Origin: SAR324 cluster bacterium
GTDB lineage: Bacteria; SAR324; XYD2-FULL-50-16
Reading direction: 5' to 3'
NCBI GenBank assembly: GCA_028282825.1
Contig: JANQGZ010000093.1
Location: 186,612 to 250,611 of the forward strand
Length of the DNA: 64,000 nucleotides
This document shows, piece after piece, positions 55,091 to 64,000 of the stretch (position 1 is its first letter; every line of letters starts with the position of its first letter). The notes below the pieces were generated by a model. It made no database searches. It saw nothing but the letters and a program-made list of their open reading frames with translations, and had not been told where the DNA came from. The translations under genes and the position numbers were made by a program.

Positions 55091-58000
55091 GTGGCTGATA
55101 ACAGAACATCAGATATTAAAAAAGCATTACTGGCTATTCGAGAGCTAAAAGCAAAGATAAAGCAGTTGGAAAGCAATAACCCTGAACCTATTGCTGTGAT
55201 TGGCATGGGATGCCGCTTCCCCGGAGGAGTCTATAGTCCGGAAAACTACTGGCAATTGTTGACGGAGAAGATAGACGCCATCAGTGAAGTTCCGTCCGAC
55301 CGTTGGGATATCAATGAATACTTTGATGAAAAACCCGGGCAGCCCGGAAAAATGTATACACGATGGGGAGGATTTCTGGACCATATCGATCAGTTCGATC
55401 CTCACTTCTTCGGCATATCCCCAAGGGAAGCAGCAGCATTGGACCCTCAACAACGATTGCTGTTGGAAGTTTCCTGGGAAGCCATGGAAAACTCAGGGCT
55501 TAATCCTCATACCCTGGAAGGAAGCAATACCGGTGTGTTTATCGGAATTACGGCCAGCGATTATGCCTTTCAACAGATTAGAGAGGGTAACACAAGCCAG
55601 ATCGACGCGTATTTTGGAACTGGTAATGCACTAAATGCCGCAGCCGGAAGACTGGCGTATACATTTGGCTTTCAGGGACCCGCCATGATAGTAGATACGG
55701 CCTGTTCCTCTTCCCTAGTCGCTATTCATTTGGCCTGTCATAGTCTAAACAACCGGGAAAGTAACCTGACAATCGCAGGTGGTGTCAATGTTATTCTATC
55801 CCCGGAATCCACCATAGCGACCAGCCAGGCAAAAATGTTATCCCCCATCGGACGATGCAAAACATTTGACGAAAGTGCTGACGGATACGTACGGGGTGAG
55901 GGTTGCGGTATTGTGGTTTTGAAAAGACTGGCAGATGCCCTCAAGAATGGAGATGCCATTCAGGGAGTGATTAAAGCCACCGCCGTTAACCAGGATGGAC
56001 AAAGCGCAGGTTTCACTGTTCCCAATGGAGTTGTTCAGCAGAAGTTGATTGAAGAGGCCCTGAACAAAGCACAGCTATCACCCAAAGACATCGATTATAT
56101 TGAAGCTCACGGGACTGGCACCTCATTGGGCGATCCTATTGAAGTTAACGCTCTAAACAAGGTGTTTGGAGTTGATAGAGACAATGAGTACCCACTTTTG
56201 GTTGGTTCCGTTAAAACAAATATTGGTCACCTGGAATCTGCATCCGGAATAGCGGGCTTAATCAAAACATTGCTGGCCTTGCAGCATCAAAAAATACCTG
56301 CTCACTTGCATTTGAATAAGGTCAATCCGCATATTCCATTGGCAAACATACCCATCTCAGTGCCTGTAAGCCTAAGCGAATGGCCTAATAAAAATACTTT
56401 ACGCCGGGCAGGGGTTAGTTCGTTTGGTTTTAGCGGCACCAATGCGCATGTTATTATTGAGCAGTCGCCGGAAATACCACCTGCGAGGCAAGATAGTAGA
56501 CTGCCGGGCCATTTGCTGACTATTTCTGCACGAAACGAGTCTTCACTAAAACAGCTTGCAGGCAACCTAAAAGAATCTCTCTCACAAAAAGCAGAGTCAC
56601 CAATCGCCGATTTTTGTTTTACTTCAAACACAGGTCGTGCCCATTTCCAACATCGCATTGGCATTTTAGGATCGAACATCAACGAACTGGAAGAAGCGCT
56701 GGCATGCTATCTTGAAGGAAAGAAATCACCGACCTTATACATTGGAGCACCAAAGCAGGAAACGTCATCCAAAAAGGTTTTTTTATTTACAGGCCAAGGG
56801 TCACAGTATGCTGATATGGGAGGACAGCTTTATCAAAATCAACCAACATTTCGTTATTGGATGGATGAGTGCGCCAGGTTTTTGGAAGCTGAATTGGAAA
56901 GTTCCTTACTATCTGTCATTTATGGAGAAAACAGTCATTTACTAAACCACACTGCTTATACCCAACCGGCTCTATTTGCTTTGGAATACTCCTTATTCCA
57001 ACTGTGGAAATCGTGGGGAATACATCCGGATGCTGTCACGGGGCATAGTGTAGGGGAATTCACTGCCGCCTGTGCGGCGGGAATCTACAGTCTTGAAGAT
57101 GGTTTGAAATTGATTGCCGCCAGGGGAAGGCTGATGCAATCGTTACCTGCCGGTGGTGGCATGTTGGCTGTTTTTGCCAATGAGCAACAGGTGTTGGAGA
57201 TCATTGCTCCATATTCAGCCAGTATCTCTCTGGCTTCCATCAATGGCCCACAGAGTATGGTAGTTTCCGGATCAAAAACCAGTCTGAAACAAATTCAGCT
57301 CCAGTGCGATAACCTCGCCATCAAAACATACCCGTTAACTGTCTCTCATGCGTTTCACTCACCTTTGATGGAACCTATCCTGGAAGAATTCGCCCGGGTA
57401 GCCGAACAGATGACTTACCAACAAGCGAAAATCCCCTTGATATCCAATATGACGGGCAACGTCGTCGAAAATGTGGATGCCGACCACTGGAAACATCATG
57501 TCCGACAACCGGTTCGATTTTATGACGGAATGCTTGCCATAGAAAGTATGGGATTTAAAAGATTCCTGGAGATAGGCCCCAACCCCGTACTAACAGGGTT
57601 GGGAAAACAGTGCATTCCCAATACTGAATCCCGGTGGATGGCATCATTACGGAGGGGGTTTGAAGATTGGGGACAATTGCTTCAAAGTCTGGCAATTCTT
57701 TATACCGAAGGTGAAGACATCGATTGGAATGCGATATATCAGGATACCTCGGGATATCAGAAAGTAAATCTGCCTAATTATCCATTCCAGCGGCAACGAT
57801 ACTGGAAAACGGTTCTCTCATTAGAGGATCAATTAAAATCAGCTGCCCAGACCTTTGCCAGCAATAACATTGAAAAAATACAACCCAGGGATGTCGATAA
57901 AAAGCAGGCAGCATTGGACAAATTATGCCTCGCCTATTTCACCAATCACCTGGCGTCAAGACAAGTGTTCCAAGAACCCGGTGCACAGCTAAAGATAGAA

Positions 58001-64000: not shown

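Follow-up and report, generated by a model that had tools for sequence, protein, structure and literature searches.

Among the described systems closest to the gene reported here, the curacin A polyketide synthase (PKS) of Moorena (CurJ, CurK and CurL; also the ER of JamJ) has in-line S-adenosylmethionine-dependent C-methyltransferase (cMT) domains, malonyl-type AT domains and short N-terminal docking-type helices; the Cur and Jam modules carry cMT after DH, and the Cur proteins form a long multi-protein line encoded in a large cluster. Methyl-branched envelope lipids are the products of two mycobacterial enzymes, mycocerosic acid synthase (MAS) and Pks13; MAS takes methylmalonyl-CoA and contains neither a cMT nor a nonribosomal peptide synthetase (NRPS) module. 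Synthases of polycyclic tetramate macrolactams (PTMs; HSAF/ikarugamycin type) and the fungal synthases of the PsoA and LovB highly reducing PKS type likewise have a single reducing PKS module with C-A-T and a release domain. The PTM synthases lack cMT and ER, and the bacterial ones end in a TE; in fungal PKS-NRPSs, DH precedes cMT and a reductase or Dieckmann cyclase (R/DKC) stands at the end. Here we analyzed a 64,000-nucleotide stretch (the window) of contig JANQGZ010000093.1 from a SAR324 cluster bacterium, which belongs to an abundant, uncultured deep-ocean lineage, and describe a PKS-NRPS gene that occupies positions 55091–64000 on its forward strand.

The window protein appears to combine in one polypeptide a PKS module of the cis-AT type, fully reducing and C-methylating, and an NRPS module. 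It has the in-line cMT, the malonyl-type AT, the KS-AT linker families and the short N-terminal docking-type helix in common with the curacin PKS; however, its cMT lies ahead of DH, and it comes from a single gene that also encodes an NRPS module, and no further PKS gene lies nearby. In comparisons with solved structures, the best match of KS-AT was CurL with 1041 bits, as against 420 bits for the fungal LovB and 398 bits for PsoA. CurJ was the best match of the cMT, CurF and CurK of DH, and CurK of ER. These matches indicate that the domain affinities lie with curacin-type cis-AT modular PKSs, not with fungal iterative PKS-NRPSs. MAS was the best solved match of the segment that runs from the pseudo-KR through ER and KR to ACP (392 bits), and Pks13 matched the TE of an orthologue; the identities to both were low, and this likeness is a lead to a possible lipid-like product. 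The window protein departs from the PTM-type layout KS-AT-DH-KR-ACP-C-A-T-TE in that it has a conserved cMT and ER.

The open reading frame and its orthologue

The first-pass annotation, a reading of the letters by eye, had proposed a single open frame from GTG 55091, and translation confirmed it: the frame comprises 2,970 codons, contains zero stops and runs to the window edge. Given the base composition of the region, the chance of such a stop-free run is approximately 1e-75, and the remaining five frames of 55091–64000 contain 133–179 stops each. The frame was missing from the mechanical list of open reading frames (ORFs) solely because that list includes no ORF that is cut by the window end. 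Downstream of an in-frame TAA (55082–55084), GTG 55091 is the first codon that could serve as a start, the start-flanking bases AAGACAACGTGGCTGA are conserved in the SAR324 orthologue, and amino acids 1–31 are 84% identical between the two proteins. Therefore, GTG 55091 is well supported as the start codon. The GC content across the gene (0.42–0.455) is like that of the neighbouring genes.

When genomes were scanned with the C domain, one close relative emerged, on contig JANQLH010000042.1 (L001) of the SAR324 metagenome-assembled genome (MAG) PL25a_bin.53; two genome scans, with the C domain and with cytochrome patterns, gave no close relative besides this MAG. The orthologue, L001p, is a single ORF of 3,908 amino acids with the same eight domains as the window protein, followed after C by A (3036–3512), T (3539–3603) and TE (from 3627; Pfam Thioesterase PF00975). 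Overall identity between the two proteins is 68%; by domain, it is 75–81% for KS, AT, ER, ACP and C, 65–67% for MT and KR, and 51% for DH. The ratio of nonsynonymous to synonymous substitution rates (dN/dS) between them was 0.06–0.21 in every domain, and thus every domain, the whole reductive loop included, is under purifying selection. The PKS-NRPS gene is a real, intact, uncharacterized hybrid of a SAR324-type bacterium, and the window probably holds the 5′ three-quarters of one functional gene of approximately 3,900 codons in total.

Because the syntenic, 68%-identical orthologue has A-T-TE, we infer that the window protein also continues with A, T and a TE with a Cys nucleophile, after which the gene ends. 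This agrees with the first-pass annotation, which had placed A-T and a release domain beyond position 64000. The same annotation had regarded the gene as the start of a cluster with tailoring genes past the window edge, which the orthologous locus does not support: the L001 gene ends after TE, and the next genes lie on the opposite strand and encode an Asp/Glu/hydantoin racemase, a DUF917 (S-Me-THD-like) protein and a sigma-54 activator. A gene for an AAA protein comes next. As these downstream genes are convergent and non-biosynthetic, the PKS-NRPS gene is probably a one-gene locus and not the edge of a larger cluster, with no tailoring genes following it.

Pfam and NCBIfam profiles gave the order KS-AT-cMT-DH-ER-KR-ACP-C that had been read by hand, with a full reducing loop leading straight into the C domain (Table 1). 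The catalytic motifs of KS, AT, DH, ER and ACP, previously called intact, proved to be so, and the Cys-His-His triad of KS is complete; KR was outside that earlier list, and its catalytic Tyr is His. We take the AT to be malonyl-type from its HAFH motif. In the alignment with the CurJ structure 5thy, the cMT motifs LEIGAGTG, NVLHAT and WEIT are conserved, and their conserved His and Glu correspond to the reported catalytic dyad of CurJ. DH is the least conserved domain relative to the orthologue, yet its dN/dS is 0.14; the orthologue DH keeps the catalytic His and Asp and has the motif HxxxNxxxxP, with N replacing G. ER is 76% identical to its counterpart, with a dN/dS of 0.09. The HHIIIDG motif of the C domain, which is 75% identical to that of L001p, starts at amino acid 2701, that is, at exactly the nucleotide reported earlier (63191).

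Table 1. Coordinates of the PKS-NRPS gene segments and of the conserved island upstream, in window positions
Feature	Position	Strand	Pfam span (aa)	Evidence
Conserved island in 5′ spacer	54882–55003	+		78% identity over 125 nt to L001 1985–2106
GTG and N-terminal coiled-coil or docking helix, aa 1–31, IKKALLAIRELKAKIKQLE	55091–55183	+		CurL structure aligns from residue 6
KS, Cys205 at 55703–55705	55184–56470	+	32–408	Pfam PF00109, PF02801; DTACSS, EAHGTGT, KTNIGH
KS-AT linker	56471–56776	+	412–544	Pfam KAsynt_C_assoc, CurL-like_PKS_C, RhiE-like_linker
AT, malonyl-type	56777–57790	+	563–843	Pfam PF00698; GHSVGE, HAFH
cMT, ahead of DH	57911–58921	+	1085–1255	CurJ cMT structure 5thy, E 2.4e-74, query residues 11–347
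DH	59006–59890	+	1309–1593	Pfam PKS_DH_N, PS-DH; HRPFGTIVFP (HxxxGxxxxP), DSCFQ (DxxxQ); CurF/CurK DH structures
Structural pseudo-KR subdomain and linker	59891–60655	+		Alignment to the matching region of MAS structure 9d2y, starting at query residue 148
ER	60656–61591	+	1877–2166	Pfam ADH_N, ADH_zinc_N, ADH_zinc_N_2; HSASGGVG; CurK ER 5dp1, 237 bits
KR, His2334 (62090–62092) at the catalytic-Tyr position	61649–62410	+	2187–2365	Pfam PF08659; GGMGGLG
ACP, Ser2500 at 62588–62590	62468–62725	+	2474–2537	Pfam PP-binding, ACP_SdgA_C; GMDSL
NRPS C domain, cut by window edge	62804–64000	+	2572–2968	Pfam PF00668, E 1e-95, model positions 3–403 of 456

The nearest collinear relative in the protein databases is P0075, an uncharacterized protein of 4,330 amino acids encoded at locus L011 (Logan contig SRR28370467_361353). 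It is 46% identical to the window protein over 2,992 amino acids and has the same order KS-AT-cMT-DH-ER-KR(His)-ACP-C-A-T-TE(Cys), the TE part being compared via the orthologue. The N-terminal helix IKKALLAIRELKAKIKQLE is nearly identical in P0075, the window protein and the SAR324 orthologue. A KS-AT-KR-ACP protein, which has no counterpart at the window locus, is encoded 47 nt upstream of P0075 on the same strand and ends in a typical docking tail, LTEQEIEKLIEQELKDI; an upstream partner of the SAR324 proteins would be expected to end in a tail of the type ...EQEIEKLIEQEL. Because this docking-tailed protein lies directly upstream, P0075 is the last protein of a multi-modular assembly line, and by the same comparison the window protein appears to descend from the terminal protein of a modular line, with its docking helix kept. 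P0084 is related more distantly but has the same PKS module, together with an N-terminal FAAL-ACP; this is a hint that modules of this type may take a fatty-acyl primer. P0075 also has approximately 390 additional amino acids after TE (amino acids ~3940–4330, L011 ~16049–17221) that are absent from the SAR324 orthologue; this tail gave no Pfam match at E ≤ 1e-3, and its NCQPFRF motif looks nitroreductase-like by eye.

No named pathway had been recognized by eye, and the searches bore this out, with the best database relatives being 38–46% identical. An exhaustive HMMER search with the MT-DH segment against 1.84 billion representative proteins found nothing above 38% identity; the SAR324 orthologue evidently lies outside that library. 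A metagenome scan with the C domain returned relatives at ≤31% identity only. A word-indexed protein search with ACP-C as the query gave no hit as long as 910 amino acids and none above 38% identity; it missed P0075, which is in the collection, so this result is not evidence of absence. In the literature search, neither a SAR324 PKS-NRPS nor a SAR324 natural product was found to be described.

Domain order, KR histidine and release domain

The window protein departs from the canonical order KS-AT-DH-cMT-ER-KR-ACP. Among the 150 best representatives, KS-AT-DH-MT-(ER)-KR-ACP predominates, and the MT-then-DH order was found in approximately 20, several of which are PKS-NRPS hybrids. MT-then-DH is thus a minority arrangement that is already present in other database proteins. 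The literature search revealed no discussion of this order for bacterial PKSs; in the literature searched, AT-MT-DH appeared solely in a table of eukaryotic PKS domains from 2008. A second MT-then-DH family, distinct from that of the window protein, was also observed (P0076, P0079, P0098, P0105, P0106, P0107, P0139 and P0161), in which the PKS module is joined to a heterocyclization-type C domain (DxxxxD) and an A domain into which a methyltransferase is inserted.

In KR, the sequence GQGNHAAAN aligns with GQGAYAAAN of MAS, so that His2334 replaces the catalytic Tyr. The NADPH motif and the Ser, Lys and Asn residues are present, the dN/dS of the domain is 0.12, and the Gln at −3 matches the position described in PMC7327777. 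The His also occurs in L001p, P0075, P0084, P0105 and P0076 (GQxNHAAAN) and, more widely, in 68 of 192 KR domains of related proteins. It is concentrated in cMT-containing cis-AT modules: 16 of the 20 modules with the canonical order KS-AT-DH-MT-ER-KR have it, and so does every one of the four MT-DH-ER modules in the window-protein family. Because His-type KRs predominate in the canonical modules, we read the His not as decay but as a clade trait of C-methylating modules that would be compatible with function. No description of a His-type KR subclass was found in the literature searched. A scheme in which a dead KR yields a β-keto product and hence a tetramate was considered and rejected, as most of the related fully reducing modules have the His and as KR, DH and ER are under purifying selection.

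The nucleophile of the L001p TE is Cys3694 (L001 13385–13387), in the motif GYCLG and in a Cys-Asp-His arrangement, and Cys is also found in the related TEs of P0075 (GWCMG) and P0161 (GFCMG). The best solved match of the L001p TE was the acyl-transferring TE of Pks13 (E 3e-18), with the lid region covered; in the alignment, the Cys takes the place of the Pks13 nucleophile, which is a Ser (GWSLGG). The TEs of this family are, as a group, most similar to that of Pks13. The A-domain code of L001p, hand-read with a motif spacing consistent with GrsA, is D-V-L-S-I-G-A-V-C-K, a hydrophobic pocket, and that of P0075 is D-V-F-A-I-G-A-V-C-K. Cys-TEs are known for β-lactone (ObiF1) and β-lactam (SulM) release, and these enzymes, like the orthologue, have the Cys nucleophile in a terminal NRPS TE. 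However, the orthologue TE has G-Y-C-L-G and lacks the SulM-specific motif Gln-Cys-Asn (PMC11298585), the isolated domain gave no ObiF1 or SulM match at E ≤ 0.01, and the A-domain code is not suggestive of a β-hydroxy or β-amino acid. By these comparisons, the orthologue TE does not group with the ObiF1/SulM enzymes.

The cMT-before-DH order, the KR His and the Cys-TE each recur, by sequence comparison, in other database proteins. With its predicted continuation, the protein is a natural example of a cMT placed before DH, a His-type KR in a fully reducing loop and a Pks13-related Cys-TE, all of which are under-described.

Predicted route and rival readings

We propose, with a probability of about 0.6, that the gene encodes a bimodular hybrid megasynthase, in a single gene of approximately 3,900 codons, that follows a single-extension route to an N-(2-methylacyl) amino acid. 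An acyl primer would reach KS either from an unlinked partner that docks on the N-terminal helix or directly from acyl-CoA or acyl-ACP; AT would load malonate, and KS would carry out the condensation. The cMT would then methylate C-2 of the β-ketoacyl-ACP, and KR (in its His variant), DH and ER would reduce the chain to a saturated 2-methylacyl-ACP. The C domain would join this chain to a hydrophobic amino acid activated by A and held by T, and the Cys-TE would release the N-(2-methylacyl) amino acid, which on this domain logic is the likely product, by hydrolysis, acceptor transfer or cyclization. A single-gene PKS-NRPS of this kind is small enough for synthesis and expression, and its product would be directly identifiable. 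In metagenomes, however, orphan synthases of the hybrid kind are very common, and this one keeps to known assembly-line logic; the value of the finding is incremental.

Several points weigh against this proposal. A-T-TE lies outside the window and rests on an orthologue from another genome, and the Stachelhaus code was taken from motif spacing, without a predictor. The argument for activity of the His-variant KR is comparative only, and neither a phosphopantetheinyl transferase nor a partner protein is encoded within the 55 kb upstream. Moreover, the evidence is compatible with single or iterative use of the PKS module. In an iterative mode, in the style of MAS or fungal highly reducing PKSs, a short primer would become a multiply methyl-branched saturated chain that is released as a lipoamino acid. 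We regard this as possible but doubtful. In having just one module, equipped with a full reducing loop, the protein looks like an iterative synthase, neither a loading module nor an upstream PKS is encoded nearby, and the best solved match of the pseudo-KR-ER-KR-ACP segment is itself an iterative enzyme, MAS; however, KS-AT, cMT, DH and ER are closest to the non-iterative curacin modules, the malonyl-type AT combined with an in-line cMT is as in modular cyanobacterial systems, the nearest collinear relative, P0075, is the terminal member of a multi-protein line, and the conserved N-terminal docking helix suggests that the chain is handed over from a partner.

A further reading is that of a lineage-specific lipid synthase in place of a classical secondary-metabolite enzyme, in which a fatty acyl primer supplied by primary metabolism would be extended to a 2-methyl-branched chain, joined to a hydrophobic amino acid and transferred to a cell-envelope acceptor by the Pks13-like Cys-TE. 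We consider this unlikely; if true, it would mean a new class of envelope lipoamino-acid lipids in SAR324-type bacteria, made from a single gene. The layout had at first been taken for that of iterative PKS-NRPSs with tetramate- or pyridone-type products, and tailoring genes had been expected beyond the window; on this reading, Dieckmann cyclization would release a β-ketoacyl-aminoacyl thioester. The formal layout of one reducing PKS module with C-A-T and release is shared, the TE has a parallel in bacterial PTM synthases, and the unusual Cys-TE could fit a non-hydrolytic release, but this reading now seems quite unlikely. The KS-AT scores of PsoA and LovB fall far below that of CurL, the order is MT-DH and not the fungal DH-MT, and the release domain seen in the orthologue is an α/β-hydrolase TE, neither a reductase nor a Dieckmann cyclase. 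In addition, P0075 stands at the end of a multi-modular line, the orthologue is followed by no tailoring genes, and, with ER, DH and KR all under purifying selection, a retained β-keto group would need programmed skipping. That the gene is an inactive relic, the decaying remnant of an assembly line with its partners lost and its KR dead, is very improbable. Although KR has His at the canonical Tyr, DH is the least conserved domain, with its altered motif in the orthologue, and the upstream partner present at L011 is missing here, the frame is stop-free over 2,970 codons and its orthologue over 3,908 amino acids, dN/dS is low in every domain, the remaining catalytic motifs are all intact, most KRs of the related fully reducing modules are of the His type, and a promoter-like element upstream is conserved.

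Upstream spacer and neighbouring genes

The respiratory neighbours and the 497-bp spacer described in the first reading were both recovered. The non-coding spacer extends from 54594 to 55090, and its L001 counterpart is 1,175 nt long; outside the conserved island (Table 1), the spacer is not alignable between the two genomes. The island contains, as read by eye, TTGGTT (54915–54920), an 18-nt spacing and the extended −10-like sequence TGCTAGAAT (54936–54944). It may represent a putative extended −10 promoter, which would make the PKS-NRPS gene its own transcription unit. When the spacer was scanned for consensus promoters and terminators, nothing came up on the + strand and the by-eye site was not listed, and an Rfam search of the spacer for a riboswitch or RNA element gave no match at E ≤ 1.

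Upstream, the window encodes hypF, hypB, hypE and hypD, the NiFe hydrogenase small subunit and FeS subunit, a 381-amino-acid ORF, the large subunit, the maturation protease, moeA and a multihaem cytochrome, followed by the spacer. Pfam annotation of 38 upstream ORFs of the window was non-biosynthetic and revealed no loader, partner or tailoring gene, and tblastn queries with FAAL-ACP, A, ACP, PCP, KS, TE and the P0075 tail found no homologue in window positions 1–55090 or in the L001 flanks. With nothing biosynthetic encoded in 1–55090, the earlier placement of the left border inside the window is supported.

The end of the hydrogenase large-subunit gene, the protease, moeA, the cytochrome (84% amino acid identity) and the PKS-NRPS gene are syntenic in L001, and the nearest named relatives of the hydrogenase large subunit are from SAR324-cluster MAGs (84–86%). 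Two distant SAR324-type contigs, L012 and L013, share the hydrogenase-protease-moeA backbone and have a different continuation without the cytochrome; scans with the C domain and cytochrome patterns found no close copy of the PKS-NRPS or of the cytochrome on them. Because these contigs share the backbone without a copy of either gene, the pairing of cytochrome and PKS-NRPS could be confined to a sub-lineage, in which the two may have been acquired or retained jointly. The 567-amino-acid multihaem cytochrome itself (window 52890–54593; L092 2303–4003) was found only in the SAR324 MAG that also carries the PKS-NRPS.

The 381-amino-acid ORF between the hydrogenase FeS and large subunits (47916–49061, + strand) had no Pfam match at 1e-3 and, by its position, could be a membrane anchor (HybB-like). 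Farther upstream, positions 3615–5747 on the − strand encode a 710-amino-acid fusion of an RmlD-like sugar-nucleotide reductase and a DegT/DnrJ/EryC1-type aminotransferase. This fusion gene lies within a 12-kb sugar-nucleotide biosynthesis block, whose GC content of 0.36–0.39 is below that of the rest of the window.

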